Positions 1 through 14,001 of a stretch of DNA of 14,646 nt are shown piece by piece. The translations under genes and the position numbers were made by a program. Positions within the stretch are counted from its first letter, which is position 1. Every line of letters begins with the position of its first letter. The stretch comes from Candidatus Nealsonbacteria bacterium (GTDB lineage Bacteria > Patescibacteriota > Minisyncoccia > Minisyncoccales > MHMH01). The notes beneath the pieces are model-generated. The model saw only the letters and a list, made by a program, of their open reading frames with translations, had not been told where the DNA came from and searched no databases. Location: positions 1-14,646 of the forward strand of contig JAUYKD010000019.1 of assembly GCA_030700195.1 (NCBI GenBank), read 5' to 3'.

Positions 1-264
1 ATTCATATTAACGGCATATCTTTAATAGAACCGAAGTGGACAGAGAAGGGAATTAAAAATATAGAAAAAGCAATCAAATTCTTGGAAAACTATAAATGGT
101 CAAGCTACCCAGACTATATTGGAAAGAAGAATTTTCCTTCAATAACCAAACGAGATTTTCTTTTAAGAATAACGAACGGAGGAAGCGGATATAAAGAAGT
201 TATTGAGGGCCGAATGAAAGATAAAGAAAATAAACATTTTAACGATATAGAGGCGGAATTATAA
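1..264 (+). CDS. 3' end (87 codons) of an IS200/IS605-type Y1 transposase-like / RAYT-like protein; the 5' part lies left of the window
   Basis: Frame 1 is open from base 1 (IHINGISLIEPKWTEKGIKN...) to TAA at 262-264. The track start at 82 is only an internal TTG. The tail motif FLENYKWSSYPDYIGKKNFPS resembles, from memory, the conserved C-terminal W-SSY-DY region of Y1_Tnp-like proteins common in Parcubacteria. The catalytic HUH/Tyr part is outside the window, so the family call is tentative. Confidence 0.5.
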   Translation: MHINGISLIEPKWTEKGIKNIEKAIKFLENYKWSSYPDYIGKKNFPSITKRDFLLRITNGGSGYKEVIEGRMKDKENKHFNDIEAEL

Positions 265-273
265 TAAAAAAGG

Positions 274-310
274 CGCGGAGAACTGTTCTCCGCGGAGCTA
301 TTTTTATTTT
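274..310 (+). terminator. putative intrinsic terminator after the transposase-like CDS
   Basis: 9-bp stem CGCGGAGAA (274-282) / TTCTCCGCG (286-294) with loop CTG, followed by GAGCTA and a T-rich run from 301. The T-run is 6 nt from the stem, so it is not fully canonical. Confidence 0.5.
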
Positions 311-320
311 ATTTTGTTTC

Positions 321-329
321 TGGTATGAT
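321..329 (+). promoter_or_regulatory. extended -10 promoter element (TGgTATGAT) positioned for a leaderless ctpA mRNA
   Basis: TG at 321-322 and TATGAT at 324-329. Only 6 nt (AAAACA) separate the -10 from ATG 336, and there is no GGAGG-like motif upstream of the ATG. Confidence 0.4.
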
Positions 330-335
330 AAAACA

Positions 336-1538
336 ATGAGAAAAAAGGGCTTATTTTTATTTTTTCCGTTGATTGTTATTTTAATCGCTTTCGGGCTCGG
401 TTTTTACGTTGGTAAGCTTCAAGTGCCTCCGGCCCCGATAGAAGGCGTTTGCAATCAAACCGTGGGAGAACCGCAAGATGTTGACTTTTCTCTTTTCTGG
501 GATGCCTGGAGGGTTTTAGAACAAAACTTTTTTGACTCGGAAAAAATAAACTATCAGGATATGATTTATGGGGCGATTTCGGGCATGGTTAAATCTTTAA
601 AAGACCCTTATACGGTTTATATGCCGCCCGAAGACGCCAAGATTTTTAAGGATGATGTTTCAGGCGAGTTCCAGGGCGTTGGCATGGAAATAGGCATCAG
701 GCAAGGGACATTAACAGTCATCGCTCCTTTAGAGGGTACGCCAGCCCAAAGGGCTGGGTTAAGGCCCGGGGATAAAATTATTAAAGTGGACGATGTTTAC
801 GTAGCTGACATTACGGTTGATGAGGCGGTTAAGCTTATTAGAGGGGAAAAGGGGACAAAGGTTGTTTTAACGATTATGCGAGACACTTTTGATCAGGTAA
901 AGGATTTTGAGATTATCAGAGAGGTTATTGAGATACCTTCCATTAAATGGGAAGTAAAAGAAGAAGACATTGCTTATATCAAGCTTTATAATTTTTCTGA
1001 AGCCGGAGGTAATGCTTTTAAACAAGTAGGCATGGAAATAATGAAAAGCCCGACTAAGAAAATAATCTTTGACTTGAGAAATAATCCCGGCGGCTACCTT
1101 GAGGTGGCCCAGGATATTACGGGCTGGTTTTTAGAAAAAGGACAAGTTGTAACTATAGAGGATTTTGGCGGCAAAAAAGACAATAAAGAATACAAGGCCA
1201 ATGGTTCGGGGCAGTTTGTTTCTTATCCAATAGTTATTTTAATTAACCAGGGTTCAGCTTCCGCTTCCGAAATATTAGCCGGAGCATTAAGAGACCAAAG
1301 AGAAGTTCAGCTTATTGGCGCAAAATCATTCGGCAAAGGTTCGGTTCAAACTCTGGAAGAATTGAAAAGCGGTTCGTTAAAGATTACGGTGGCTAAATGG
1401 CTGACTCCTAACGGGCAGACAATTGATGGAGAAGGGCTGGTGCCGGATATTGAGATTGAATTGAGCGAAGAAGACTATAATAACGAGAGAGATCCGCAAC
1501 TGGAGAAAGCTATTGAAATAATAAGAGAGATGAGATAA
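336..1538 (+). CDS. ctpA: carboxyl-terminal processing protease (peptidase S41) with PDZ domain and N-terminal membrane anchor
   Basis: 400-aa ORF. Hydrophobic N-terminus GLFLFFPLIVILIAFGLGFYVG. PDZ-type segment GVGMEIG...APLEGTPAQRAGLRPGDKIIKVD. S41 catalytic Ser motif NQGSASASEILAGAL and Lys motif FGKGSVQ. Confidence 0.92.
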   Translation: MRKKGLFLFFPLIVILIAFGLGFYVGKLQVPPAPIEGVCNQTVGEPQDVDFSLFWDAWRVLEQNFFDSEKINYQDMIYGAISGMVKSLKDPYTVYMPPEDAKIFKDDVSGEFQGVGMEIGIRQGTLTVIAPLEGTPAQRAGLRPGDKIIKVDDVYVADITVDEAVKLIRGEKGTKVVLTIMRDTFDQVKDFEIIREVIEIPSIKWEVKEEDIAYIKLYNFSEAGGNAFKQVGMEIMKSPTKKIIFDLRNNPGGYLEVAQDITGWFLEKGQVVTIEDFGGKKDNKEYKANGSGQFVSYPIVILINQGSASASEILAGALRDQREVQLIGAKSFGKGSVQTLEELKSGSLKITVAKWLTPNGQTIDGEGLVPDIEIELSEEDYNNERDPQLEKAIEIIREMR

Positions 1539-1553
1539 TATAAAAAAGCAGGC

Positions 1554-1600
1554 GAAGAGAACTTTGTTCTCTTCTTAATCTTCGTCCCGCGAAGCGGGAC
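1554..1600 (+). terminator. two tandem hairpins between ctpA and rplI (possible terminator/attenuator)
   Basis: Hairpin A: GAAGAGAAC (1554-1562) / GTTCTCTTC (1566-1574), loop TTT, tail TTAATCTTC. Hairpin B: GTCCCGC (1584-1590) / GCGGGAC (1594-1600), GAA triloop, ending 7 nt before the rplI ATG. Confidence 0.4.
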
Positions 1601-1607
1601 TCGATTT

Positions 1608-2054
1608 ATGAAGATAATTTTATTACAAGACGTTGATAAAATCGGGAAAAAATACGAAGTCAAAAACGTAGCCGACGGCTACGGCCGGAATTTTTTATTG
1701 GCCAAAGGTTTGGCAAAAATTGCCGACGAGGAATCCTTGAAATTGATTGAAAAGCAGAAAGAGGAATTAAGAGTAAAAGCTGAAGAAGAATTAGGTAAAA
1801 TTCAGCAATTCGCTTCAACCTTGGACGGATTTGAGCTTACTATTCCTTTCAAACTAGGGGATAAAGACCAATTATTTGAGTCGGTTACTTCCCAGAAGGT
1901 GGCTGAAAAACTGAAAGAGCAGGGGTTTGATATAAAAAAGACGCAGATTATTTTGCCCGAGCCGATTAAAGAGATGGGTGAATTTCCAGTTAAAATACAA
2001 TTAGGCCACAATTTGGAAGTAGAAATAAAATTAATAATTATTGAAGAAAAATAA
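1608..2054 (+). CDS. rplI: 50S ribosomal protein L9
   Basis: 148 aa. The N-terminal domain MKIILLQDVDKIGKKYEVKNVADGYGRNFLLAKGLA matches the canonical L9 N-terminus, followed by a long charged helix and a C-terminal domain. Confidence 0.93.
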   Translation: MKIILLQDVDKIGKKYEVKNVADGYGRNFLLAKGLAKIADEESLKLIEKQKEELRVKAEEELGKIQQFASTLDGFELTIPFKLGDKDQLFESVTSQKVAEKLKEQGFDIKKTQIILPEPIKEMGEFPVKIQLGHNLEVEIKLIIIEEK

Positions 2055-3685
2055 TGACGCGCTATATTTTCGTAGCTGGCGGAGTTATGTCGGGCATAGG
2101 CAAAGGAGTGGCTGTGGCGGGAATCGGCAAGATTTTAAAGAGCTATGGTTTCAGGGTCACTGCCATAAAAATAGATCCTTACGTCAATGTTGACGCAGGT
2201 ACTATGAATCCGATTGAGCATGGAGAAATTTTTGTAACGGCTGACGGGACAGAATGCGACCAGGATTTAGGCAACTACGAAAGATTTATTGACGAGGATT
2301 TAAGCACTCTCAACTATATAACAACCGGCCGGGTTTATCAGGCGGTTATTGAAAGAGAAAGAAACTTAGGGTATGGAGGCAAGTGCGTGGAAGTTGTGCC
2401 TCATATCCCGGAAGAAGTTATTCTTAGAATAAAAAAAGCGGCCAGAGCAACCAGGGCCGATTTTGTTTTAATAGAAATCGGAGGGACGGTCGGAGAATAC
2501 CAAAACTCGCTCTTTTTGGAAGCAGCCCGGATGATGAAAATGAATATGTCCGGCAATCTGCTGTTTATTTTGATCAGCTATTTGCCTGTTCCTAGAATGG
2601 TCGGGGAAATGAAAACCAAACCGACTCAGCAGGCGGTCAGATGGCTCAATATGGCCGGCATTCAGCCGGATATGATTCTAGCCAGGTCAGTTGTTCCTTT
2701 AGACAAGCCGAGAAAAAGAAAGATATCCGTTTTTTGCAACGTTTCAAAGGAAGATGTCATTTCAGCTCCGGATGTTAAATCAATTTATGAAATTCCCCTT
2801 AACTTTGAGAAAGACAGAATGGGGGATAGGATATTAAAGAAATTCGGTTTGAGGCCTAAGAAAAAAGGAAATATGAGAGATTGGAAAAAACTGGTCAATA
2901 TTATCAGAACAGCCAAAAAACCGGTTAAAATAGGCATTGTCGGCAAATACTTTGAAACAGGCAATTTCACTTTGACTGACTCTTATATTTCCATCATTGA
3001 AGCGATCAAGCATGCCAGCTGGTCTTTTAAAAGAAAACCAGAAATCTATTGGCTTTCTTCGGAGGATTACGAGAAAAATCCCCGCTTGTTAAAGGGATTA
3101 AAAGAGTACGATGGAATAATTGTACCCGGTGGTTTTGGAGTAAGAGGGATTGAAGGTAAAATAAAAACCATCCAATTCTGCAGAAAAAACAAAATACCTT
3201 ATTTTGGCTTATGCCTTGGTATGCAGTTGGCTGTTATTGAGTTTGCCAGGAATGTTTGCGGGTTAAGGAGGGCTAATTCAGCCGAGTTTAACTCAAAGTG
3301 CAAAGAAAACGTGATTGATGTCATGCCAGATCAAAACATCCTTTTGAAAGAGAAAAGGTATGGAGGCACCATGAGATTGGGGGATTACAAATGCCGGATA
3401 AAGCCGGGCACTATAAGCCATAAAGCCTATAAATCCTCAAATATTTTTGAAAGACACAGGCATCGGTACGAAGTAAATAACGCTTTCAGGAGTATTTTGG
3501 AAAAAAGAGGAATAGTTGTGGCCGGAGTTAATCCGGAAAGAGATTTGGTTGAGATAATTGAAATTAAGGGTCATCCTTTTTTCGTGGCTACCCAGTTTCA
3601 TCCGGAGTTTAAATCACGTCCGACAAAACCTCATCCGCTGTTTCGTGAATTTATCAGAGCTTGTTCTCGCCGGCAATCACATTGA
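2054..3685 (+). CDS. pyrG: CTP synthase
   Basis: 543 aa. N-terminal [15 protein letters not shown]. Glutamine amidotransferase motifs GLCLGMQ (Cys nucleophile), HRHRYEVN and QFHPEF. The start overlaps the rplI stop by 1 nt (TAATG). Confidence 0.97.
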
Positions 3686-3944
3686 CAACCTTGGCTAATC
3701 TTTGAGAATTATTGAATAATATTTTTCTTTTTATTGAAAACTTAACAAGGCCGCTGGCCATAGCGTAGAGAGTGTCGTCTTTCCCTCGTTTTACGTTTTT
3801 TCCGGGGAGGAATTTAGTGCCCCGCTGGCGGATAATGATTTGACCGGGTTTGACTTTTTCGCCATCGTACTTTTTAACTCCCAGGTACTTAGGCAAAGAA
3901 TCACGTCCCAGCTTTGATGCGCCAGTTGCTTTAGTTGTAGCCAT
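3654..3944 (-). CDS. rpmA: 50S ribosomal protein L27
   Basis: [69 protein letters not shown] is a canonical L27 core. I place the start at ATG 3944. The track start at 3962 is a TTG adding 6 non-conserved residues. The 3' end overlaps the pyrG 3' end by 32 nt. Confidence 0.93.
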
Positions 3945-3981
3945 ATAATATGAGCTTATCAAAAATCAGAGAATTTGTAAA

Positions 3982-4066
3982 CCCCGTTAGAAATCTATGA
4001 AAAATATGCTAAGCAATATAAATCGAAAGAAAATCTTGGATTTATGGCCAAAGATTTCTAACGGGG
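3982..4066. repeat. 15-bp perfect inverted repeat with a 55-nt spacer
   Basis: CCCCGTTAGAAATCT at 3982-3996 and its exact reverse complement AGATTTCTAACGGGG at 4052-4066. The left arm abuts ATG 3997. Confidence 0.9.
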
Positions 4067-4242
4067 CAAGAACTCATCAAGCGGATATCGTGCTGGTTAT
4101 TGGAGTTATCCTTATTTCTTTGCTTTCTTTTGCTCTGGGCTATATAACTGCTAAAACTCAGGAAAAACAACCTATTAAATTTGAAATACATGAAAATAGC
4201 TATAATTGGAGCGGGAATAGTCGGACTTTATTTATCTCTTAA
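3997..4242 (+). CDS. hypothetical small single-pass membrane protein (81 aa)
   Basis: An 81-codon ORF is long for an AT-rich sequence. It has a basic N-terminus (NINRKKILDLWPK) then one hydrophobic helix IVLVIGVILISLLSFALGYI, consistent with positive-inside topology. Against it: no SD, its start region is clamped by the 15-bp inverted repeat, and its last 53 nt overlap the next CDS out of frame. Confidence 0.4.
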   Translation: MKNMLSNINRKKILDLWPKISNGARTHQADIVLVIGVILISLLSFALGYITAKTQEKQPIKFEIHENSYNWSGNSRTLFIS

Positions 4243-5113
4243 TCTTTCAAGAAAAGGGCATAAAGTCGTTGTTTTTGAAAAGAAGGCTAAGATTGGGAAA
4301 TCAGCTTGTTCCGGGCTTTTTTCTGAAAGGATTCTTCAGTTTATTCCTGAAGCTGAAAGTTTGACGCAAAATAAAATAAAGAGCGTTTTAATACATTTTC
4401 CCGGAAAAACCCTGAAAATAGAATTTTCTAAACCCTTCTTAGTTATGAATCATGCTCAGTTGGATATGCTGGTGGCTGATTTGGCCAAAAAAGCCGGAGC
4501 AGAAATAAAGCTTAATTATAATTGGTCAAGCAATAATGAATTTGACAGAGTTATCGGATGTGACGGCGCTCAATCATTTATCAGAAAAAGCTTAAAAGAG
4601 AAAGAGCCGAAATACCGCTTGGGCATCATTGGTTTTACTGCTCAAAAAGACGGTTCCGATTATGTTGAGACTTGGCCGGTTAAAAACGGCTTTATCTGGA
4701 GGATTCCTCGCGGAGATGAGACAGAATATGGTATAATTGCTGAATCAAGAGAAGCTAAAAAACTTTTCGACGATTTCCTTAAGAAAAACAATATTTTTCT
4801 TTCAAATATTACTTCAGCTTTGATCCCCCAAGGTTTAATAATTCCTAAAAATAACAATATCACTCTTTGCGGAGACGCGGCTGGGCTAACTAAGCCGTGG
4901 AGTGGGGGAGGAGTAATTTTTGGACTAATAGCTGCCCAAATACTTCTTGCCACTTTTTCAGACTTTTTAAAATACAGACAAAACAGCATTAGATATTTTT
5001 ATTCCAGAATGTTTTTTTATAAGATAATCACTAAAATAGTTTATTTCTTGGGATTTAACTTTCCTTGGATTTTACCTAAAAATATTAAAATAGAAGGCGA
5101 TTTTTTACTTTAA
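4190..5113 (+). CDS. FAD-dependent oxidoreductase of the geranylgeranyl reductase family
   Basis: Rossmann dinucleotide motif IAIIGAGIVGLYLSLNLSRKGHKVVVFEK. The GCDGAQSFIRK and LCGDAAGLTKPWSGGGV (GDAAG) motifs are typical of geranylgeranyl reductase-like flavoproteins. Start placed at ATG 4190 (MKIAIIGAG); the track start at 4181 is a TTG. Confidence 0.75.
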   Translation: MKIAIIGAGIVGLYLSLNLSRKGHKVVVFEKKAKIGKSACSGLFSERILQFIPEAESLTQNKIKSVLIHFPGKTLKIEFSKPFLVMNHAQLDMLVADLAKKAGAEIKLNYNWSSNNEFDRVIGCDGAQSFIRKSLKEKEPKYRLGIIGFTAQKDGSDYVETWPVKNGFIWRIPRGDETEYGIIAESREAKKLFDDFLKKNNIFLSNITSALIPQGLIIPKNNNITLCGDAAGLTKPWSGGGVIFGLIAAQILLATFSDFLKYRQNSIRYFYSRMFFYKIITKIVYFLGFNFPWILPKNIKIEGDFLL

Positions 5114-5116
5114 ATT

Positions 5117-5818
5117 ATGACTGACCAGCTTAAAAAAATTCCTTATCATTTAGGCATTATTATGGACGGCAACCGGAGATGGGCCAAACAAAAAGGATTG
5201 CCTACGCTTGAAGGCCATTTTCGGGGATATAAAAAAATTGGAGAAGTAGGGGAATGGTGCAGAAAAAAAGGCATTAAGATTTTAACTCTCTGGACTTTTT
5301 CTACTGAAAACTGGCATAGGTCTCAAAAAGAGGTTGATTATTTAATGAAGCTTCTTGAGATGGCTTTGAGTAAAAGAGAAATTAATAAATTAAGCAAGAA
5401 AGGCATAAAGCTAAGAATTATTGGACAAAAAGAGCGTTTTTCAGAAAAACTGCAAAGATTAATAAAAGAAGCCGAAGAAGCTACTAAAAATAATAAAGAG
5501 GCTACCTTGGTTTTAGCTATGAGTTATGGAGGCAGAGCGGAAATAATTGAAGCTGTCCAAAAAATCATAAACAAAAAAAATACGGTTGGCAAAATTACAG
5601 AAGAGACAATTAATGAAAACCTTTGGACAGCGGGTTTGCCGGACCCGGATTTAATCCTTAGAACAGGAGAAGAATTAAGGGTTTCCGGATTTTTAACTTG
5701 GCAATCAGTCTATGCCGAGTTATATTTTCTAAAAAAATATTGGCCGGAGTTCAGTGAGAAAGATTTAGATATAATTTTGGCTGATTATGCTAATCGCGAA
5801 AGAAGGTGGGGGAGATAA
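5117..5818 (+). CDS. uppS: undecaprenyl-diphosphate synthase (cis-prenyltransferase)
   Basis: 233 aa. HLGIIMDGNRRWAK, FSTENW and C-terminal YANRERRWG are signatures of the UppS family. The start is 3 nt after the preceding stop. Confidence 0.95.
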   Translation: MTDQLKKIPYHLGIIMDGNRRWAKQKGLPTLEGHFRGYKKIGEVGEWCRKKGIKILTLWTFSTENWHRSQKEVDYLMKLLEMALSKREINKLSKKGIKLRIIGQKERFSEKLQRLIKEAEEATKNNKEATLVLAMSYGGRAEIIEAVQKIINKKNTVGKITEETINENLWTAGLPDPDLILRTGEELRVSGFLTWQSVYAELYFLKKYWPEFSEKDLDIILADYANRERRWGR

Positions 5819-5819
5819 T

Positions 5820-6497
5820 ATGCAAATATTTCCGACCATTACCACTAAGACCAAGTCAGGCTGGAAAAGCAAGGTTGAAGAGGTAAGGATTCTTAAACTG
5901 AAAGAGGTCTCTGTTTTTCTTAGTTGTTTATTACCCCAAGAGAGAAAAGAGCTCTATCAGGCGCTGAAAAAGACAAAGGTTCAGAAAATACCTTTGGTTC
6001 ATTTAAGAGACGATGTTGAATTGTGGGAATTAGATTATTTGAGAGAGCATTACCAAACTGCGATTTTTAACACCCATAGCGGCAGAGAATTTCCTTTTAA
6101 GAATAATTTGGATAAATATAAAAAGGAAATTTACATTGAAAACGCTTACTATTCGTTTGACGAAGAAGAGCTCAAAGAGTTTGCCGGGATTTGTCTGGAT
6201 TTTTCCCATTTGGAAAACGACCGGCTTTTGCGTCCTGAAATTTATCAGCAAGATATCAAGCTCATAGAAAAATATCCTCTTGGCTGCGGGCACATTTCAG
6301 CCATTAACTCAATGACCAATATGGATAAAGAGGGGAGCGCGTGGCGCTGTTCTCATTTTTTTGAAAACTTATTCGAGTTTGATTATTTGAAAAGATATCC
6401 GCTAAAATATTTTCCGTCCATTATAGCTATTGAGCTTGAAAATAGTATAAAAGATCAGCTTAAAGTCAAAGAATATATTTTGAATCTCTTAGCTTAA
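5820..6497 (+). CDS. hypothetical protein, probably a xylose-isomerase-like / AP-endonuclease-2-type TIM-barrel metal-binding fold
   Basis: Start placed at ATG 5820 (MQIFPTI), 8 nt after GGGGGAG and 1 nt after the uppS stop. The track start at 5787 lies inside uppS. Alternating strand-end motifs IFPTI, PLVHLRDD, IFNTHSG, IYIEN, ICLDFSH, GHISAI and IIAIELEN resemble the H/E/D..H/H/E ligand pattern of that superfamily. The function call is from memory only. Confidence 0.6.
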   Translation: MQIFPTITTKTKSGWKSKVEEVRILKLKEVSVFLSCLLPQERKELYQALKKTKVQKIPLVHLRDDVELWELDYLREHYQTAIFNTHSGREFPFKNNLDKYKKEIYIENAYYSFDEEELKEFAGICLDFSHLENDRLLRPEIYQQDIKLIEKYPLGCGHISAINSMTNMDKEGSAWRCSHFFENLFEFDYLKRYPLKYFPSIIAIELENSIKDQLKVKEYILNLLA

Positions 6498-6498
6498 C

Positions 6499-6527
6499 TT
6501 GACAGATTTTATTGTTCATAATAATAT
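6499..6527 (+). promoter_or_regulatory. putative sigma-70-type promoter of an orphan small transcription unit
   Basis: TTGACA (6499-6504), 17-nt spacer, TAATAT (6522-6527), immediately after the stop of the preceding CDS. Confidence 0.4.
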
Positions 6528-6544
6528 TATATAATAAATAAAAG

Positions 6545-6633
6545 AAGGAGGTGATAATTTATGAATGGTACCTGACAGACCGACTGACCAGCCAATTGAG
6601 ACGACATTTTTTATTCACAGGTGAAGCCTCCTC
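6545..6633. other. mirror-image Shine-Dalgarno plus mini-ORF pair (function unknown)
   Basis: Plus strand: AAGGAGGTGA 6545-6554. ATG 6561 gives MNGT-stop. ATG 6565 gives the 19-aa MVPDRPTDQPIETTFFIHR (6565-6624). Minus strand: GAGGAGG (complement of 6627-6633), then GTG at 6618 gives the 19-aa MNKKCRLNWLVSRSVRYHS (6559-6618). Confidence 0.35.
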
Positions 6634-6650
6634 TATAAATAGAAAGTCTT

Positions 6651-7841
6651 TTAAACAATTTTAACAGTTTTAAGAAAAGAAGTTTTATAATACAAGATAA
6701 CCAAAGTAAGTAATATTAAAACTCCAGTAAGGACAAAAGGAAGAAAATAAGCCAAAGTAAACAGCACGCCTGCTAATAATGGCCCTGCCATCCTGCCTAA
6801 GCTTTCAAAAGCGCCTGCAATCCCCATGGTTAACCCCTGTCCTTTTTCTGTTTTTTCAGAGAGGAGAGAAGTGCTTACCGGTCTGATTAACGAAGAGCCA
6901 AAGCTGATTATAGAAGCTGTGATATATAAAATAAATAATGACGGCGAAAACGGCAAAAGGATGAAAAAGCAGGCCATTATCATAAGTCCGATCATTATGC
7001 CTTTTCTTTTGCCTGTTTTATTGATGATTAAGGATACGATGAAGAATTGAACGATTGCTGATACTACGCCAGTGATAAGAAAAAGTAATCCAATGCCCCC
7101 GCTTCCCAGGTTGAATTTTTCAATACCGAGTAAAGGAATGGAAACTTGTCTGTTGGACATAGAGAATGACCATAGAAGAGAAATAAAGAAAAGAGGGGCA
7201 AGGGAAGATTTTATGCCTTTTGGAATAGCAAACAAGTTTTCACTGAAAACCCGGGAAAGATTTATTAATCTTGTATCTTTTACTTTTAGAGATTCTGGAA
7301 GAAATCTAAAAACAAAGATGGAATTAAAAAGGCAAGCTGCGCCAGCTATTAAAAATGGCAGAGTGGTACTATGTTCTGCTAGAATGCCTCCAAAAGCAGG
7401 ACCTAATATTATGCCCATTGCAGAAAAAGCTCCGAATCTGCCCAATGCTTTTAAGCGTTCTTGCTTTGTTGTTATGTCAGCTACGTAAGCTTTGGCCGAT
7501 GGCACAACCGCTCCGGAAAATACTCCTTGGATTAACCTGGAAATAAAAAGAGCCGGAAGATTGTTTATAAAAGCAAAAAACAAAAAGCTTACTGTCATGC
7601 CTAATAATCCGCCTCCAATAAGAGTTTTTCTGCCAAAACGGTCAGAAAGCATTCCCCAGAAAGGGGACAAGAAAAACTGGGTTATGGCGAAGGAAGCTCC
7701 CAAAAGCCCGATTGTCGCATTGCTTGCTTGGAATGTCTTAGCATATACGGGTAGTAGGGGAAAGATCATTGAAAAAGCCACCATATTAATGAATACGGCA
7801 AAATAAAGTAGAAAAAACGGAGAATTTAAGAATTTAAACAC
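6651..7841 (-). CDS. MFS transporter (DHA1-like drug/H+ antiporter type)
   Basis: 396 aa, about 12 hydrophobic segments. MFS motif A WGMLSDRFGRKTLIGG lies between TM2 and TM3. GTG start with no SD. Confidence 0.9.
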   Translation of the reverse strand: MFKFLNSPFFLLYFAVFINMVAFSMIFPLLPVYAKTFQASNATIGLLGASFAITQFFLSPFWGMLSDRFGRKTLIGGGLLGMTVSFLFFAFINNLPALFISRLIQGVFSGAVVPSAKAYVADITTKQERLKALGRFGAFSAMGIILGPAFGGILAEHSTTLPFLIAGAACLFNSIFVFRFLPESLKVKDTRLINLSRVFSENLFAIPKGIKSSLAPLFFISLLWSFSMSNRQVSIPLLGIEKFNLGSGGIGLLFLITGVVSAIVQFFIVSLIINKTGKRKGIMIGLMIMACFFILLPFSPSLFILYITASIISFGSSLIRPVSTSLLSEKTEKGQGLTMGIAGAFESLGRMAGPLLAGVLFTLAYFLPFVLTGVLILLTLVILYYKTSFLKTVKIV

Positions 7842-7850
7842 AACAGTTTT

Positions 7851-7878
7851 ATTATATAGAAAAATTTAGAAAAATCAA
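7851..7878 (-). promoter_or_regulatory. putative promoter of the MFS transporter gene
   Basis: On the minus strand: TTGATT (complement of 7873-7878), 16-nt spacer, TATAAT (complement of 7851-7856), only 9 nt upstream of GTG 7841. Confidence 0.4.
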
Positions 7879-7925
7879 GAGAAAATAGGGTAACGGTTAA
7901 TATTGTGCGACATTTAATTACAAAG

Positions 7926-7957
7926 AAAGAGGACTCTTTTTAGGGAGTCCTTTTTTT
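7926..7957. terminator. bidirectional intrinsic terminator downstream of the 74-aa ORF
   Basis: Stem AGGACTC (7930-7936) / GAGTCCT (7945-7951), extendable by A-T pairs. It is flanked by an A-rich stretch (AAAGAAAGA) on the left and a T-run on the right, so a U-tail exists in both orientations. Confidence 0.55.
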
Positions 7958-7972
7958 AGAGGAAGAATGAAT

Positions 7973-8197
7973 TTATTCTGGTTGTTCTTGCAAAAATTGC
8001 AAAAATTCTTCGGTTAGTTCTACCGGGACAAATTGCTGACTCAAATTAAGCGGGAAAAGAGAGAAAGGTATTCCGTGTTTCTCCAGGATACGATTGACAG
8101 GCAGGAAGTGTCGAGTAATATGCGGATCTTTCTGTGATATTTCCTTTATTTGTTCTACGCTGAAAATTATTCCTTCTGGCAATTTGTGGTGATCCAT
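7973..8197 (-). CDS. hypothetical acidic 74-aa protein
   Basis: ORF MDHHKLPEGIIFSVEQIKE...FLQFLQEQPE, preceded by GGAGGT 3 nt upstream of the ATG and followed by a hairpin terminator. I recognise no family. Confidence 0.6.
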   Translation of the reverse strand: MDHHKLPEGIIFSVEQIKEISQKDPHITRHFLPVNRILEKHGIPFSLFPLNLSQQFVPVELTEEFLQFLQEQPE

Positions 8198-8272
8198 TCT
8201 ACCTCCGTTTTTAAAATTTTATATTTATACTGTATTATAAGAGATGGTCACTGTCAAGAGGATAACTCAAAC

Positions 8273-8300
8273 TTGATTTTTCATTAATAATATTTATAAT
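8273..8300 (+). promoter_or_regulatory. putative promoter of the HEAT-repeat ORF
   Basis: TTGATT (8273-8278), 16-nt spacer, TATAAT (8295-8300), followed by AGGAGG (8308-8313) and ATG 8321. Confidence 0.55.
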
Positions 8301-8320
8301 AAAAAAAGGAGGAAAATACA

Positions 8321-8608
8321 ATGATTACGCAGCAAGTTAAGAGTCAACTTTCTTTGTTTAAAATTGCTGAAAACAGTAGTGAAAGCCCGGAAGCCAGAAT
8401 TGAGGCGGTGAAAGGTCTTTCAGACCAAAACTATCTTTCCCTAATTGCCAAGAGTTCCGACGATTGGAGGATTCGGAGAGTGGCTGTTAATTGTCTCGTT
8501 CTCCCGGCAATTTTAAGAAAGATCATCAGGAAAGATGAAAACGAAGAAGTGAAACGCGCGGCTCAAAAAAGATTAAAAGAGCTAAAAAATACGGTCTTGA
8601 AAAATTAA
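8321..8608 (+). CDS. small HEAT-repeat (PBS-lyase HEAT-like) protein, 95 aa
   Basis: Strong SD AGGAGG 7 nt upstream. Repeats of the HEAT_PBS type: ESPEARIEAVKGLSD, SSDDWRIRRVAVNCL and DENEEVKRAAQKRL. Confidence 0.65.
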   Translation: MITQQVKSQLSLFKIAENSSESPEARIEAVKGLSDQNYLSLIAKSSDDWRIRRVAVNCLVLPAILRKIIRKDENEEVKRAAQKRLKELKNTVLKN

Positions 8609-8627
8609 GGCCGTATTTTCATTTTTT
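8586..8627. terminator. possible bidirectional terminator spanning the 10-nt gap between the convergent HEAT ORF and recombinase gene
   Basis: AAAATACGG (8586-8594) pairs with CCGTATTTT (8611-8619), 16-nt loop, T-runs on both strands. Only 3 G-C pairs, so it is weak. Confidence 0.35.
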
Positions 8628-9575
8628 AAGGTTTTTACCGCTGTGGAATTGGCGGTGAATATCTCTAAGGCGCTTATTAGTGACATGGGTATAAATCTGG
8701 GTGCTCATTATACTGCGGTGGCCCAAAAACTCTTGGATGGTTCTTAAATCAACCCCTTGATTCAATAGGTCGGTTGCCATACTGTGGCGCAGAGTATGAG
8801 GAGTGGTGAAAATAGGCGCGCCGGCGGTCAGAGCGTACTTTTTAATGATTCTTTCTATGGAACGGCCGGTTAAGCGGCCGTCAGCGTCTTTTCTTGATTT
8901 ATAGTTTATGAACAAGGCCTTTTCTTTATCTTGGCGGGTTGTTAAATACTTTTTAATCCATAAAAGAGCTCTCTCTGAAAAGTAAACAGTTCTGGGATGA
9001 TTGCCTTTGCCGATAACTCCCAGCTCAAGATCTTTTTTATCTTTTAAATTAATAAACTGTTCTTTATTTAGAGCCACCAGTTCGGCTATTCTTAAGCCAG
9101 TGGAAAAAAGAGACTCTAAAATAGCCTTATCTCTAAGCCCCGGAATGGTTTTTTGGTCCGGAGCCAGTAAAAGCTTCTCAATCTGGTCTAAATTAAGGAA
9201 CTTGACGGTTTTCTGGCCTTTCACGTCTTTTGGCAGAGTTATTTTGCCTGGGGGGATAGATTGTATGTCTTTGGCTACAAAATAGCCCAAAAGGGCTCTT
9301 AAAGCGACAAGATAGTAGTTCTGGGTGCTTCGCTTGAGAACCTGGCCCTTATCGTTCTGAGAACGGGACAAAAACAGCCGGTAAGCCCAAATGTCATCCG
9401 GAGTAAGTTCGCCAGGTGTGATGTCTTGTTTGTGCGTTTTTGTCAGCCAGGAAACAAATTTATCTAAATATCTTTTATAGTTTTCCTGAGTTTTATCAGC
9501 TAAGCCTTTCTCAACTTCACAATAATCAAGGAAGTCGGGAATATGTTTAATAATAGGGGCGTTCGGTTTCTCCAT
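8619..9575 (-). CDS. tyrosine recombinase / integrase, XerC/XerD-like
   Basis: 318 aa. N-terminal SAM-like core-binding domain (DFLDYCEVEKGLADKTQENYKRYLDKFVSWL). Catalytic motifs GLRIAEL (Arg), HTLRHSMAT (His-x-x-Arg) and LGHRSIMSTQIYTHV (His and Tyr nucleophile). Confidence 0.9.
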   Translation of the reverse strand: MEKPNAPIIKHIPDFLDYCEVEKGLADKTQENYKRYLDKFVSWLTKTHKQDITPGELTPDDIWAYRLFLSRSQNDKGQVLKRSTQNYYLVALRALLGYFVAKDIQSIPPGKITLPKDVKGQKTVKFLNLDQIEKLLLAPDQKTIPGLRDKAILESLFSTGLRIAELVALNKEQFINLKDKKDLELGVIGKGNHPRTVYFSERALLWIKKYLTTRQDKEKALFINYKSRKDADGRLTGRSIERIIKKYALTAGAPIFTTPHTLRHSMATDLLNQGVDLRTIQEFLGHRSIMSTQIYTHVTNKRLRDIHRQFHSGKNLKK

Positions 9576-9627
9576 ATATTATAAATCGCTTTACTAACAT
9601 TGTGCGACCTTGTCTATATCTATAATA

Positions 9628-9701
9628 ACACCGCCAAAGGCGGTGTCAATCATCGAACCCGCAAAGCGGGTGAAGGTAAAGATGAGGGTGAAGCCCTCAT
9701 C
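9628..9701 (-). terminator. array of three GC-rich triloop hairpins downstream of the gltX / secreted-protein operon
   Basis: ACACCGCC-AAA-GGCGGTGT (9628-9646), ACCCGC-AAA-GCGGGT (9657-9671) and GATGAGGG-TGAAG-CCCTCATC (9681-9701). Read on the minus strand, the first and last are followed by U-rich tails (UUUACCUUC and UAUUAUAGAUAU). Confidence 0.5.
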
Positions 9702-9729
9702 GCCCCTCCCCTGCCCTAAATATAATCCT

Positions 9730-10104
9730 TTAATTCAATAAATCCTTAAACCTTTCCCAAAGATCTTTTTCCATCTCTTTTTTCTCTTTTTGGAATTCTT
9801 GGTTTATATCCGGCATTTCTTTGCCCAGCGCTTTAAGAAGCTTTTGCCACCACGTTTCAACTATGTTTCCAAGAGTGCTGTCCCAAAAGCCCTTGACCCA
9901 GCCCCACATCTTAAGAAAAAACGGCAAACCCTCATTGTCCCAGACGTCTTTTACTGCCCTGGGCAGCTGTTTTAGTGCTTCCAGGCCCAGCGTTTTGACA
10001 TCATTTATGGTTTCCGGAGCTTGGATTTGGGCAGAAGTTTGATAGATTGGCAAGCCGAGGAAGAAGATATTTATTATTAAAATAGAAACAATGTATTTTT
10101 TCAT
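9730..10104 (-). CDS. hypothetical secreted Trp-rich protein (124 aa)
   Basis: Signal-peptide-like N-terminus MKKYIVSILIINIFFLGLPIYQTSAQ. The mature part has 8 Trp (VWDNEG...MWGWVKGFWDS...ETWWQKLL). Its ATG overlaps the gltX stop (ATGA), indicating translational coupling. Confidence 0.7.
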   Translation of the reverse strand: MKKYIVSILIINIFFLGLPIYQTSAQIQAPETINDVKTLGLEALKQLPRAVKDVWDNEGLPFFLKMWGWVKGFWDSTLGNIVETWWQKLLKALGKEMPDINQEFQKEKKEMEKDLWERFKDLLN

Positions 10105-11534
10105 AATATTAATTCTTTAGCTTGTTTAATTCTGATTAAAGTTTCTTCTTTCCCCAGAGCCTCGGCTATCTCAAAAGGGCCGGCCGACGCTTTTTTACCG
10201 CTTAAAGCAACTCTAAAAGGCCATAAAAGTATTCCTCTATCCCCCGTTTGTTCCGCCTCTACCATTAAAACATTTTCAATCTCTGCTTTATCCCACCTCT
10301 TTATTTTAAATAATAATTTCTCTAAAATATCAAGAGATTGTTTGATTTGTTCATCATCCGCTTTTTTCCATCTTAAAAGTTCTTTACTATACTGCGGTTG
10401 TTTAAAGAAAAAATCAGTCAATTCCTTTATTTCCGAAAGCTTTTTTAACCGTTCTTTGTGCATAGCAATTATTTGTTGAAGTTTTTGCTTGTCGATTTTT
10501 GGCCCGCCTGCCGGCGAGGCAGGCAGATACGGTTGACAAAGCTCCGTCAGTTCGTCAATTGATTTCTGCCTGATATAAAAGCCGTTTAAGTAGTCCAGCC
10601 GCTGGATGTTGAATATGGCCCCTGACTTCTGCACTTTTTCCAGGGAAAATTCTTTTATTAAAGAATCCATAGAGAAAATCTCTTTTTCCGTACCTGGATT
10701 CCATCCTAAAAAAGCCATGAAATTAATTACTGATTCAGCCAGATACCCTTGTTTTCTATATTCAGCTATAGATTGAGTTCCATGCCTTTTGCTCAGCTTG
10801 CTTTTATCAGGACCGAGAATTAAAGGCAAATGGCCGTATTTTGGTTGGGGCAAATTCAGGGCTTCTTGCAGAAGGATTTGTTTTGGCGTGTTTGGGATAT
10901 GGTCTTCTCCCCTGATGACATGAGATATTTTCATTTCAAAATCATCCACCACTAAAGCAAAATTGTATAAGGGAGTAGATAAGTCCTTGGCTATAACAAA
11001 GTCCCCCAGCAAAGAAGACTCAAACTCTATTTTCCCCCGGATAATGTCGTTAAAACTCACTTTTTTTTCTGGAATCTTGAATCTAATGACTGACGGTTTG
11101 CCTTGAGAAAGATATTTTTTAATTTCTTCTTCAGAAAGGTTATGGCACTTGCCGTTATATTTGGCTGGCACTCCCCTGCTCATTTGCTCCTGCTTTTTTC
11201 CTTCCAATTCTTCTTGCGTACAAAAGCAATAATAAGCCAGGCCGTCTTTTACAAGCTTATCCAGATATTTAATATAGATTGAAGTTCTTTCGCTTTGCAA
11301 AAAAGGACCTTCATCCCAGATGATGCCCAGCCACTTTAAATTATCAATAATGTCTTTTTCAAACGCTTTATCAGATCTTTCAATATCAGTGTCTTCTATC
11401 CTTAAAATAAGCTTACCTCCACTATGTTTAGTAAAAAGGTAGTTGAAAAGCGCTGTTCTGGCATTGCCGAAATGTAAAAGTCCGGTTGGCGAAGGAGCCA
11501 TTCTTACTCTGATTTCTTTTGATTTAAGCGCCAT
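10101..11534 (-). CDS. gltX: glutamyl-tRNA synthetase
   Basis: 477 aa. Class I HIGH region PSPTGLLHFGNARTALFNYLF and KMSKS-type KLSKRHG, with a C-terminal anticodon-binding domain. Confidence 0.96.
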   Translation of the reverse strand: MALKSKEIRVRMAPSPTGLLHFGNARTALFNYLFTKHSGGKLILRIEDTDIERSDKAFEKDIIDNLKWLGIIWDEGPFLQSERTSIYIKYLDKLVKDGLAYYCFCTQEELEGKKQEQMSRGVPAKYNGKCHNLSEEEIKKYLSQGKPSVIRFKIPEKKVSFNDIIRGKIEFESSLLGDFVIAKDLSTPLYNFALVVDDFEMKISHVIRGEDHIPNTPKQILLQEALNLPQPKYGHLPLILGPDKSKLSKRHGTQSIAEYRKQGYLAESVINFMAFLGWNPGTEKEIFSMDSLIKEFSLEKVQKSGAIFNIQRLDYLNGFYIRQKSIDELTELCQPYLPASPAGGPKIDKQKLQQIIAMHKERLKKLSEIKELTDFFFKQPQYSKELLRWKKADDEQIKQSLDILEKLLFKIKRWDKAEIENVLMVEAEQTGDRGILLWPFRVALSGKKASAGPFEIAEALGKEETLIRIKQAKELIL

Positions 11535-11537
11535 AAT

Positions 11538-12662
11538 TTATTTTCTTAAATATTTAACAAGGTATTCGGCAATTATCTTACCAGCCTCCGGCCTGGAAAA
11601 ATCTTTAGCCCTTTGAGACATTTTTTGCAGGATTTCCGGTTGAGAAAATAAATATTTAAGTTTTTCTAAAAAGAAATGAGGGGTTAAGTTTGCTTCTTCA
11701 AGCACTAAAGCGGCTCCGGCTTCCTCGCAAGAGTAAGCGTTTTTCAATTGATGGTCTTGGGCTGAAGTTGGTAAGGGGATAAGAATGCTTGGTTTTTGGC
11801 AGGCGGTTATTTCAAAGATACTTCCCGAGCCTGCTCGGCTGATAACCAGCCAACAGGCCTTTAGGGCATGCTTTAACTCAACCTCCGTCAAAAAAGCAAT
11901 TGGATGGTAGTATTTTTCTAAATCTTTATTAATAACGACTTTTGCTTCTTCTTTAACCTGCTGAATGTTTTTTTCTCCTGTTTGGTGGATCAGCTCAAAA
12001 TCAGTTAATATTCCCGACAATATTGATAAAATCATATCGTTTATCTTTTGGGCGCCCTGCGAACCTCCTAAAATCAAAAGGAGCGGCTTTTCATCACTTA
12101 GCCTAAAGAGCTCTTTCGCTTTTTCTTTATTTCCGTTCAGCAATTCTTTTCTGATGGGATTGCCGGCAAAAATCATTTTCTTTTCAGAAAAGTATTCTGT
12201 TTGGTTGATCGGGAAAGAAATAAAAACTTTTGGAGTGAATTTACTTAAGAATCTGTTGGCCAGCCCGGGACTTATGTCTGATTCGTGCAAAAGAACGGGC
12301 ACTTGCAGGATTTGGCCGGCTATAACCGGAGAGATTGAGCCATATCCTCCTTTACTGAAAATAAGGTCGGGAGCCAGCAGAAAAACATAAAAGAAAGATT
12401 GAAAAAAGCCGATGGGCATTTTAAACAGAATATCAACGATATTTTGAAGAAAGCTTTGCCAAGCAAAGTACCTTCTTATTTTGCCGGCCATAATCCATTT
12501 CATTTTAATTCCTTCTTGGGAAAGAAAAACAGAGCCGAATTCGTCTTTCGGGCCGAGATAAAAGAAATCAGCCTTAAATCCAATTTTCCTAAGTTCTCTG
12601 ACAACGGCGATTATTGGGAAGATGTGTCCGGCGGTGCCCCCGCCGGTAAAAAGTATCTTCAT
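11538..12662 (-). CDS. murG: UDP-N-acetylglucosamine--N-acetylmuramyl-(pentapeptide)-pyrophosphoryl-undecaprenol GlcNAc transferase
   Basis: 374 aa. N-terminal G-loop MKILFTGGGTAGHIFP, C-terminal GT28 domain (ILGGSQGA...SRAGSGSIFE). It sits between ftsW and gltX. Confidence 0.95.
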   Translation of the reverse strand: MKILFTGGGTAGHIFPIIAVVRELRKIGFKADFFYLGPKDEFGSVFLSQEGIKMKWIMAGKIRRYFAWQSFLQNIVDILFKMPIGFFQSFFYVFLLAPDLIFSKGGYGSISPVIAGQILQVPVLLHESDISPGLANRFLSKFTPKVFISFPINQTEYFSEKKMIFAGNPIRKELLNGNKEKAKELFRLSDEKPLLLILGGSQGAQKINDMILSILSGILTDFELIHQTGEKNIQQVKEEAKVVINKDLEKYYHPIAFLTEVELKHALKACWLVISRAGSGSIFEITACQKPSILIPLPTSAQDHQLKNAYSCEEAGAALVLEEANLTPHFFLEKLKYLFSQPEILQKMSQRAKDFSRPEAGKIIAEYLVKYLRK

Positions 12663-12708
12663 ATATCGAATTTTTTAATTTATTAAGTCAAAAAGATAAA
12701 TCTTTTTT

Positions 12709-12741
12709 CCACCTTCACTATCGTTCGGTAATCGAAGATGG
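12709..12741. repeat. imperfect 33-nt palindrome in the ftsW-murG spacer
   Basis: CCACCTTC (12709-12716) pairs with GAAGATGG (12734-12741) with 1 mismatch. There is an inner TATC/GGTA stem around GTTC. The adjacent homopolymer run is on the wrong side for a canonical minus-strand terminator. Confidence 0.3.
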
Positions 12742-12757
12742 AAATGAATTCTCAAAT

Positions 12758-13846
12758 TCATTGACGTTTGGAAATATTAAGCAGAATTCCTATGCCGATA
12801 AGCTCTGTGACTAAAGCCGATCCGCCATAGCTGATAAAAGGCAGAGGAACGCCGGTTAGAGGAAGAAGACCGACCATTGAACCAATATTAACAAAAGTTT
12901 GCAAAGCGAGCCATCCGGTTATCCCCAAGGCCGTTAGCTTTAAAAAATTATCTTTAGCTTTTTTAGCAATGGAAAAACCAAGCCAAACGAAAATCAGAAA
13001 GAAAGAAATCATGGTTAAGCTTCCCAAAAATCCGGTTTCTTCAGCAAACGAGGCAAAAATAGAATCAGCCATGGGTTGAGGTAAAAAGCCGAATCTCTGA
13101 ACGCTCATGCCAAGTCCTGTTCCTAATATCCCTCCAGAGCCAATAGCAATAAAGGCCTGCTTTATCTGATAGCTTATGCCCATCGGGTCAATATCAGGGT
13201 TAATAAAGCTTAAGAATCTATTTAATCGGTATGGAGCAAGTTTAATAAGGGCTGTTAAGCCGGCCAAGGCAACCAAAACAATAAAGCCGGCGTGCTTGAG
13301 AGGAGTTCCAGCTAAAAAATACATTAAAAGACCGGTAGACATTATAATTCCCAAGGTGCCTATATCCGGCTGTAGAATTAAGAGCAGGGCTATTAATGAC
13401 ATTATAGCTGAAAAGGCCAAGAGAGTTTCGTTAAACTCTTTTTTAGTTTTTTCCATTCTAGATGAAAGCCAAGAGGCCAGATAAAGTATGAAAATAAGTT
13501 TTAAGGCTTCTGATGGCTGGAAGGAAGTTATGCCTAAGTTTATCCAGCTGCTGGCTCCTCCCAGAGTTATGCCGATTATCGGGACAAAAACCAAAACCAG
13601 TAAAAACAAATTTAAAAAGAGCAGGGCCGGTATCCACTTCTTTAACAAAGAAAGCTTTATTTTATAAGCCAGAAATCCAAGAATAACTCCGGGCAGCAGG
13701 CCGAAGAGAAGATGATGGAAAAGAAAAGTATTGGGCGAGCCGAGCTTTTCCTGCGATAAAGCGGCTGAAACGCTGGTTATAACAACAACGCCCAGCAATA
13801 ACAAAACAGCCACCGCTGAGATTAAGAAATAATCGGCTTTCTTCAT
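12758..13846 (-). CDS. ftsW: SEDS-family peptidoglycan glycosyltransferase; FtsW by dcw context
   Basis: 362 aa polytopic membrane protein with SEDS motifs FQPSEALKL and PLPFISYGGSAL. It is located between murD and murG. Confidence 0.9.
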   Translation of the reverse strand: MKKADYFLISAVAVLLLLGVVVITSVSAALSQEKLGSPNTFLFHHLLFGLLPGVILGFLAYKIKLSLLKKWIPALLFLNLFLLVLVFVPIIGITLGGASSWINLGITSFQPSEALKLIFILYLASWLSSRMEKTKKEFNETLLAFSAIMSLIALLLILQPDIGTLGIIMSTGLLMYFLAGTPLKHAGFIVLVALAGLTALIKLAPYRLNRFLSFINPDIDPMGISYQIKQAFIAIGSGGILGTGLGMSVQRFGFLPQPMADSIFASFAEETGFLGSLTMISFFLIFVWLGFSIAKKAKDNFLKLTALGITGWLALQTFVNIGSMVGLLPLTGVPLPFISYGGSALVTELIGIGILLNISKRQ

Positions 13847-13909
13847 ATATTATTTATTTTAACTTTCCCTTTCCTTTTTTTGTTAAACTTTTTTTATTTA
13901 GTATTTTAT

Positions 13910-13937
13910 ATTTTATTCCTTTTTATCAAAAAGTCAA
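13910..13937 (-). promoter_or_regulatory. putative internal promoter for ftsW
   Basis: On the minus strand: TTGACT (complement of 13932-13937), 16-nt spacer, TAAAAT (complement of 13910-13915), about 60 nt upstream of ATG 13846. Confidence 0.45.
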
Positions 13938-13962
13938 GCACCGAGCGAGGCGAAGCCGAGCA

Positions 13963-13987
13963 AAGGTAAAGATGACCGAAGGTCATC
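13963..13987 (-). terminator. hairpin terminator module downstream of murD
   Basis: GATGACC-GAA-GGTCATC (13971-13987). On the minus strand it is followed by CUUUACCUUUG. It shares the 13-nt string AAGGTAAAGATGA with the 9674-9686 module. Confidence 0.5.
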
Positions 13988-14001
13988 GACTGACGAACGG
14001 G

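Follow-up and report, generated by a model that had tools for sequence, protein, structure and literature searches.

An orphan Shine-Dalgarno motif in a Candidatus Nealsonbacteria contig as the probable relic of a DksA/TraR leader

In the 14,646-nucleotide (nt) stretch of Candidatus Nealsonbacteria DNA analyzed here (GenBank assembly GCA_030700195.1, contig JAUYKD010000019.1, positions 1 to 14,646; hereafter the window), two convergent genes are separated by a gap of 153 bp (6498-6650), bounded by the stop of a plus-strand gene for a 236-amino-acid (aa) protein, which ends at 6497, and by the stop of a minus-strand gene for a major facilitator superfamily (MFS) transporter, at 6651. The 236-aa hypothetical gene (5787-6497) is conserved, has no Pfam family and serves as our syntenic anchor, and the DHA1-like MFS gene (6651-7841) fills the site at which relatives carry a DksA/TraR-type gene and the genes that follow it. 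The gap contains a promoter, an exceptionally strong Shine-Dalgarno (SD) motif and several very short open reading frames (ORFs), which an earlier reading of this DNA (the original prediction) had described as an orphan expression cassette. Here, we describe this cassette and its counterparts in related genomes, which together suggest that it was left behind by a gene no longer present at this site.

A promoter and an outstanding Shine-Dalgarno motif

The promoter is sigma-70-like, with TTGACA at 6499-6504, a 17-nt spacer and TAATAT at 6522-6527 on the plus strand; the original prediction had placed it correctly, and our promoter scan called it as well, with a score of 10/12. It begins 2 nt past the stop of the upstream gene, and its predicted transcription start site lies near 6534-6536. 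An alternative and perfect -10 hexamer, TATAAT at 6530-6535 on the same strand, was overlooked in the earlier reading; it comes without a good -35, was read directly from the sequence, is absent from the calls of the promoter scan and stands 9 nt ahead of the SD motif.

The conserved element of the cassette is a motif that we term hyper-SD (AGAAGGAGGTGATA, 6543-6556, plus strand), with an 11-nt perfect complement of the canonical 16S 3' tail. Its core, AAGGAGGTGAT (6545-6555), forms a stronger anti-SD duplex than any other site on the two strands of the window, at -19.9 kcal/mol against -13.7 kcal/mol for the next best site, these energies being scored against the canonical tail GAUCACCUCCUUUCU, which had to be assumed as the 16S gene of this metagenome-assembled genome (MAG) lies outside the window. 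The sequence AAGGAGGT occurs a single time in the window. The duplex energy thus bears out the earlier choice of AAGGAGGTGA (6545-6554) as the outstanding SD of the window, and the accompanying remark that housekeeping genes here are SD-poor also holds, since a strong SD (duplex of -11 kcal/mol or better) precedes just 3 of 17 gene starts in the window. It was likewise confirmed that the cassette has no downstream gene in the window.

Related DNA totaling 642 kb contains the exact 11-mer AAGGAGGTGAT five times, where about 0.28 occurrences would be expected (0.28-0.3 by our own composition estimate, with both strands, or 1.28 Mb, counted). Two of these sites belong to the leaders of DksA/TraR genes (loci L002 and L100) and one to a similar leader in L056; another is a true ribosome-binding site (RBS), and the fifth is that of the window. 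Pure chance, by which an AT-rich spacer would happen to hold consensus-like motifs, can point to the frequency of promoter-like sites scoring at least 9/12 (52 in the window, 32 in shuffles) and to the ORFs and phased stops of the gap, which at such short size are unremarkable; yet an 11-nt complement of the 16S tail, expected about 0.3 times per 1.28 Mb over both strands, is found at the syntenic motif position of the relatives, and we consider this explanation extremely unlikely. Among the motifs listed for the gap, only the SD and the promoter just upstream of it exceed chance, and the view that these two form a genuine, non-random expression signal is upheld.

The motif recurs far upstream of DksA/TraR genes

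The comparison included 80 loci encoding relatives of the 236-aa gene. L001 and L002, from the closest related genomes, both have an A-rich stretch leading into GGAGGTGAT or GGGGGTGAC, 13-17 nt past the stop of the 236-aa homologue. This motif does not serve the next gene as its RBS; that gene is of DksA/TraR type (PF01258 at 2e-12 in L002 and a weak 0.003 in L001) and starts 72-75 nt further downstream, at what the ORF listing gives as the first possible start after an in-frame stop. Four further DksA/TraR genes (L092, L094, L099 and L100), all called PF01258, have the same layout, and a far-upstream SD-like motif is present in 6/6 DksA/TraR genes examined, 64-75 nt before the start, each start being preceded by its own purine-rich RBS, as read by eye. 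The motifs lie at 4741 in L001, 4702 in L002, 3676 in L092, 2746 in L094, about 1421 in L099 and 2430 in L100. A DksA search seeded with a two-sequence alignment returned three loci only.

The consensus of these leaders, AAAGGAGG(T)GAT, is their only conserved element and is located near the predicted 5' end of the transcript; some DksA/TraR leaders add an extension, GATGC-N-ATAAG(T), after the motif. Their anti-SD duplex energies range from -12.7 to -20.8 kcal/mol, and when the pairing at positions -120 to -20 was scored for 596 other genes of the same genome set, all six leaders fell in the top 5% of this background and three exceeded every one of the 596. The geometry of the promoter is comparable, as the perfect TTGACA-17-TATAAT of L100 ends 17 nt before GGAGG and the TTGACA-17-TAATAT of the window 19 nt before it. 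In L092, where the order is DegV, an apparent terminator hairpin (by eye), promoter and motif, the motif accompanies the DksA/TraR gene and not the 236-aa gene. No consensus RNA structure was found across seven leaders.

What follows the motif is variable. Mini-ORFs at this position differ among relatives (MPIS*, MLIS*, MRISTFLI*, MSVKPKRT*), and L001 and L092 have none; in the window, ATG-AAT-GGT-ACC-TGA (6561-6575, plus strand), correctly located in the original prediction, encodes MNGT-stop, is translatable in principle and is unconserved. A live mini-ORF or 'start-stop' element, in which the hyper-SD would drive a tiny ORF and the act of translation would regulate the messenger RNA (mRNA), with the window copy as an independent micro-cistron, is consistent with the position of the window ATG 9 nt past GGAGG, with the ATG embedded in GGAGG(T)GATG and followed by an ORF of 4-9 codons in five of eight motif-bearing loci, and with similar intergenic units of SD and tiny ORF elsewhere, such as the SD, MKTKFPKK* and terminator at L021 1341. 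However, the peptides are unconserved, a start codon is missing from the motif in L001 (ACG) and L092, the offset of the window ATG differs from that of the relatives, and in the relatives the ATG comes only 1-2 nt past GGAGG, a spacing too short for efficient initiation, all of which makes such an element unlikely. Likewise, although the window resembles known upstream mini-ORFs or 'start-stop' sites in having a strong SD before an ORF of just 4 codons whose product is unconserved, it differs from them in that ORF and spacing vary among relatives and no downstream cistron exists in the window.

Related arrangements were seen outside the six leaders. At L056 7488-7498, the exact AAGGAGGTGAT stands 65 nt upstream of a 265-aa gene without a Pfam family, a case suggesting that this type of leader may not be confined to DksA/TraR genes. 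In L100 (1702-2869), the DksA/TraR gene comes after a ribosome hibernation factor (Ribosomal_S30AE) and a 97-aa gene, a neighborhood that fits a ribosome-related role of the DksA/TraR regulator. The unit at L021 1341-1420, in a gap facing a gene end, consists of AAAAAGGAGGT, 5 nt, an ATG opening MKTKFPKK-stop and then an apparent terminator (AATCCCTTAAT...ATTAAGGGATTTTTT, by eye), and resembles a self-contained mini-cistron. Besides, AGGAGG occurs upstream of apparent terminator stem-loops (by eye) in 3' untranslated regions (UTRs), directly so at L059 3888 and at a distance of about 25 nt at L001 5279; these are orphan SDs at gene ends, not starts.

Synteny places the gap at the site of a missing DksA/TraR gene

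The window and L102, from a 414-kb relative with about 60% amino-acid identity, are collinear to the left and to the right of the gap, as read from a 20-kb view of L102. The left block (window 336-6497, L102 3783-10672) holds ctpA, rplI, pyrG, rpmA on the minus strand, a FAD-oxidoreductase gene, uppS and the 236-aa gene, and the right block (window 8619-12662, L102 16726-20674) holds a tyrosine recombinase gene on the minus strand, a 124-aa gene, gltX and murG. Between these blocks, L102 has about 6 kb with genes for DegV, DksA/TraR, SIMPL, acylphosphatase, a C39 peptidase and others, and the window about 2.1 kb, in which the cassette is accompanied by just the MFS gene and two small genes. 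DksA/TraR comes directly after the 236-aa gene in L001, L002 and L094, and after one intervening DegV gene in L092 and L102, while no DksA/TraR gene or remnant of one was detected in the window, relaxed tblastn included. Because the blocks are collinear and the DksA/TraR gene is absent, we place the cassette at the left boundary of the variable segment that was replaced, in the position of the DksA/TraR leader of relatives.

This comparison spans a considerable distance, as no close strain was found in the searched collections; beyond single 100% matches to proteins of a contig annotated Candidatus Nealsonbacteria, the next-closest proteins are 62% identical for the 236-aa gene and 55% for the MFS gene, and an exact-sequence lookup of both flank proteins returned no record. 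Relatives of the MFS gene (at most 55% identity) have other neighbors and tight 3' gaps, and are uninformative.

Short ORFs and phased stops

Two overlapping 19-codon ORFs were confirmed at the coordinates first reported, namely MVPDRPTDQPIETTFFIHR on the plus strand (6565-6624; ATG 6565, stop 6622-6624) and MNKKCRLNWLVSRSVRYHS on the minus strand (6559-6618; GTG 6618, stop 6559-6561), the latter following a minus-strand GAGGAGG (6633-6627) by 8 nt. The longest ORF of the gap, overlooked in the earlier reading, encodes 37 aa on the plus strand (6551-6664, starting at GTG 6551 or ATT 6557) and overlaps the 3' end of the MFS gene by 14 nt. An exhaustive phmmer search of 1.84 billion protein representatives found no real homologue of this ORF, its three weak matches all being tandem-repeat artefacts, and six-frame peptides of the gap compared by tblastn with the 80 related loci gave nothing below E = 0.01. 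All three predicted peptides are polar or charged, as read from their sequences, and neither 19-codon peptide is conserved, so that the suggestion of dual-coded micropeptides was not borne out.

The three in-frame TGA codons at 6573, 6585 and 6597, exactly 12 nt apart, are also where the original prediction had them. Their phasing is explained in part by a tetranucleotide run, GACA-GACC-GACT-GACC or (GACN)4, at 6574-6589, which yields two of the three, and dinucleotide shuffles of the gap produce phased stop triples of any kind in 9% of cases and, in 2.7%, TGA triples whatever their period. At least five genes of the window end in TGA as an ordinary stop, on which ground we reject a recoding of TGA under code 25 or code 4. 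A UGA frameshift sensor of the RF2 (prfB) type finds no support either, as a CUU-UGA slippery site is missing, the MNGT ORF ends in the context ACC-TGA-C, and the +1 frame after this stop leads only into the 19-codon ORF, with no long frame beyond. Because the window holds no downstream gene to control, a leader-peptide attenuator was also rejected.

A type I toxin-antitoxin system would likewise feature small opposite-strand ORFs that overlap in an intergenic gap; unlike such a system, however, the gap offers no hydrophobic peptide, no antisense promoter-like site among those listed by the scan, no conservation and no family match. The idea put forward in the original prediction, of a sense/antisense micropeptide locus, a type I toxin-antitoxin-like pair or a UGA/RF2-sensing mini-ORF, could indeed appeal to two overlapping 19-codon ORFs with usable SD spacing and to the three TGAs in register. 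Against it stand the failure of every related locus to conserve either peptide, the TGA phasing or the minus-strand SD, the absence of the hydrophobic membrane-helix character of type I toxins, a promoter scan with no minus-strand site of at least 9/12 inside the gap, the occurrence of phased stop triples in 3-9% of shuffles, partly owing to (GACN)4, the lack of a slippery site and of a long +1 frame, and the normal use of TGA as a stop; we give this idea next to no credence in any of its forms. In the orthologous gaps, what is conserved is the SD motif, with a promoter just upstream of it in some relatives, where the two belong to the 5' leader of a DksA/TraR gene; neither the mini-ORFs nor the phased TGAs nor the SD of the minus strand share this conservation. 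The 19-codon ORFs, the phasing and the minus-strand SD are incidental.

RNA structure and termination

An inverted copy of the SD core, CCTCCTC (6627-6633), lies near the site of the gene's own RBS and start in relatives and can pair with 6546-6552. The complementarity of AGGAGG (6546-6551) to CCTCCT (6627-6632), previously proposed to let either transcript mask its own SD, is real, and both strands fold in RNAfold with 6546-6552 paired to 6626-6633, but this hairpin does not exceed shuffled sequences in stability (z from -0.5 to +0.2), and neither strand has a significant fold.

The same pairing could serve the two convergent genes as a terminator, in which the GGAGG and CCTCC arms would close an imperfect hairpin (6546-6633) and the U-rich tract of the minus strand (6545-6530) would end the MFS mRNA. 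The fold predicted for both strands agrees with this, as does the continuation of the minus strand as CUUUUAUUUAUU, and in L004 what looks by eye like a stem-loop, with AAGGAGGCGA as its 3' arm, precedes a T run. The fold energy, however, equals that of the shuffles; the terminator scan called no canonical terminator in 6498-6650, while other gene ends in the window, a convergent pair among them, have short GC hairpins and T runs; and the CCTCC arm is missing in L001, L002, L094 and L100 despite the conserved SD motif. A terminator is therefore quite improbable. At that other convergent pair (8321-8608 on the plus strand, 8619-9575 on the minus strand), a 15-bp hairpin at 8586-8619 spans both stops as a canonical bidirectional terminator, unlike the gap.

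Database scans of the gap gave no further identity to it. Rfam returned zero matches at the gathering score and up to E = 10 yielded only noise (at best GibS, which scores 16 bits where its gathering score is 115); no transfer RNA or transfer-messenger RNA was found by a scan of the gap. Searches with blastn-short and nhmmer against the 80 related loci retrieved only AT-rich chance words, a 22-mer of the GC-rich core had no match in a metagenome collection, and an 18-mer had nine matches in viral contigs, all of them chance LTDRLT coding with random flanks. With peptides unconserved in more than 80 related loci, no Rfam match and no significant fold, an independent micropeptide or small-RNA locus, as first proposed, found no confirmation.

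Flanking genes

The 236-aa gene (5787-6497) and its homologues (P0001-P0120) form a large Patescibacteria family without a Pfam model, whose alignment shows invariant H72, D76, E118, D138, H141, E143, H169 and H190. The gene adjoins or sits near uppS in the loci whose gene calls were seen, and its product may be an uncharacterized metal-dependent enzyme tied to polyprenyl metabolism. Within its coding region, about 150 nt before the stop, the window has a terminator-like hairpin with a T run (6333-6354; GGGAGCGCGTGGCGCTGTTCTC ATTTTTTT). Further upstream, rpmA, encoding ribosomal protein L27, lies at 3654-3962 on the minus strand (PF01016, 5e-32). A plus-strand ORF at 3997-4242 matches the region of L102 upstream of the FAD-oxidoreductase gene, and because of this match the real start of that gene may be upstream of the listed TTG 4181.

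No convincing att-like repeats surround the gap. A 17-nt direct repeat, 88% identical (TAATATTGTGCGACATT and TAACATTGTGCGACCTT, at 7898-7914 and 9595-9611), encloses a 74-aa gene, a 95-aa HEAT-repeat gene and the tyrosine recombinase gene; because the recombinase is itself syntenic in L102, this repeat pair may be due to chance and not represent att sites.

Discussion

In our interpretation, the gap probably holds a promoter and 5' leader orphaned by the loss or displacement of a DksA/TraR-type zinc-finger gene. The synteny, the conservation and strength of the motif, and the absence of the gene from the contig are direct observations, whereas the homology of the window leader would follow from its position, motif and geometry as read from sequence. 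The order in the nearest relatives is uppS, the 236-aa gene, promoter and leader, and dksA/traR, with DegV inserted before the promoter in one of them. The segment starting with dksA/traR would then have been replaced in this genome by the convergent MFS transporter gene and small genes, stranding the promoter and the hyper-SD leader without a gene to express. In intact loci, the 30S subunit would pair with the motif without productive initiation and so shield the 5' end of the mRNA from RNase J; by analogy, the motif may thus work there as an element of the STAB-SD type. The relic, if still transcribed, may produce a short 30S-binding RNA that extends, in antisense, into the 3' end of the MFS gene and from which MNGT may be translated.

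The STAB-SD of cry3A, the precedent for such an element, was reportedly described by Agaisse and Lereclus in 1996 and by Mathy et al. in 2007. In Bacillus thuringiensis, it is an SD-like sequence near the 5' end of the long cry3A 5' UTR, where the 30S subunit is bound without initiation, and it blocks 5'-3' decay by RNase J1 (PMC4113751). The leaders described here resemble it in several respects, as a perfect SD-like sequence complementary to the 16S 3' end (with the canonical tail assumed) lies far upstream of the start (by 64-75 nt in relatives and by about 125 nt in cry3A) and, in relatives, does not act as RBS for its gene. Predicted promoters that end 17-19 nt before GGAGG in L100 and the window would place the motif near the 5' end of the transcript. 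Moreover, genomes of the Candidate Phyla Radiation (CPR) keep rnj, so that the host lineage retains RNase J (PMC12641178). On the other hand, the motif, at 11-12 nt, is longer than that of cry3A, stabilization and 30S binding would apply here by analogy, and the window copy is followed by an ATG at initiation-competent spacing and has no downstream gene to stabilize, and could be at most the relic of a STAB-SD.

As a relic of gene loss, the locus is typical in its conserved blocks on both sides, in its swapped variable segment and in the upstream signals of the lost gene left at the edge. It is atypical in that such relics usually decay, while here the SD (11/11) and the -35 (6/6) are intact and no coding remnant was detected.

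Several points weigh against a relic. Outside the motif, the window leader cannot be aligned with those of relatives. With the nearest relatives at about 60% identity in the flanking protein, an intact promoter and a perfect SD would be unexpected after an ancient loss, and the element could still function; a perfect -35 and an 11-nt SD would imply either that the loss was recent or that the element is still active, for instance in antisense transcription into the MFS 3' end. The window ATG, 9 nt past GGAGG, is competent for initiation where those of relatives lie 1-2 nt past it, and the window motif could therefore be a working RBS. A dksA/traR gene may also exist elsewhere in the genome, off the contig. 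Finally, an anti-SD motif was detected in just 48% of Parcubacteria 16S genes (PMC9297842).

A bolder reading, which we regard as highly improbable as a whole, would make the hyper-SD leader a conserved sensor of free 30S subunits for the DksA/TraR regulators of Parcubacteria, with the window copy acting on its own after gene loss. In model bacteria, the DksA/TraR family damps ribosomal RNA transcription; an idle 30S subunit bound to the 5' motif would stabilize the mRNA and raise the level of the regulator, closing a feedback loop. The window copy would then either yield a small RNA that binds 30S or acts as a decoy, or work as a promoter opposing the convergent MFS transporter gene, by antisense transcription or interference.

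For the window itself, our analysis removes a tempting lead, as the cassette is most likely a regulatory remnant at the edge of a variable segment and not a new micropeptide or toxin-antitoxin system, and a strong SD without a gene can, in genomes of this kind, point to a recent gene loss, an aid to the annotation of MAGs. To our knowledge, post-transcriptional control in the CPR is essentially unexplored. In a clade where most genes have no SD, a stretch of 8-12 nt complementary to the 16S tail consistently lies well ahead of the start of DksA/TraR-type genes. The finding in the window is a modest one, the probable relic being of a known kind, an orphan-SD 5' leader; its wider interest lies in the conserved hyper-SD leader of CPR DksA/TraR genes, a candidate for a STAB-SD-like or ribosome-sensing leader in this radiation.

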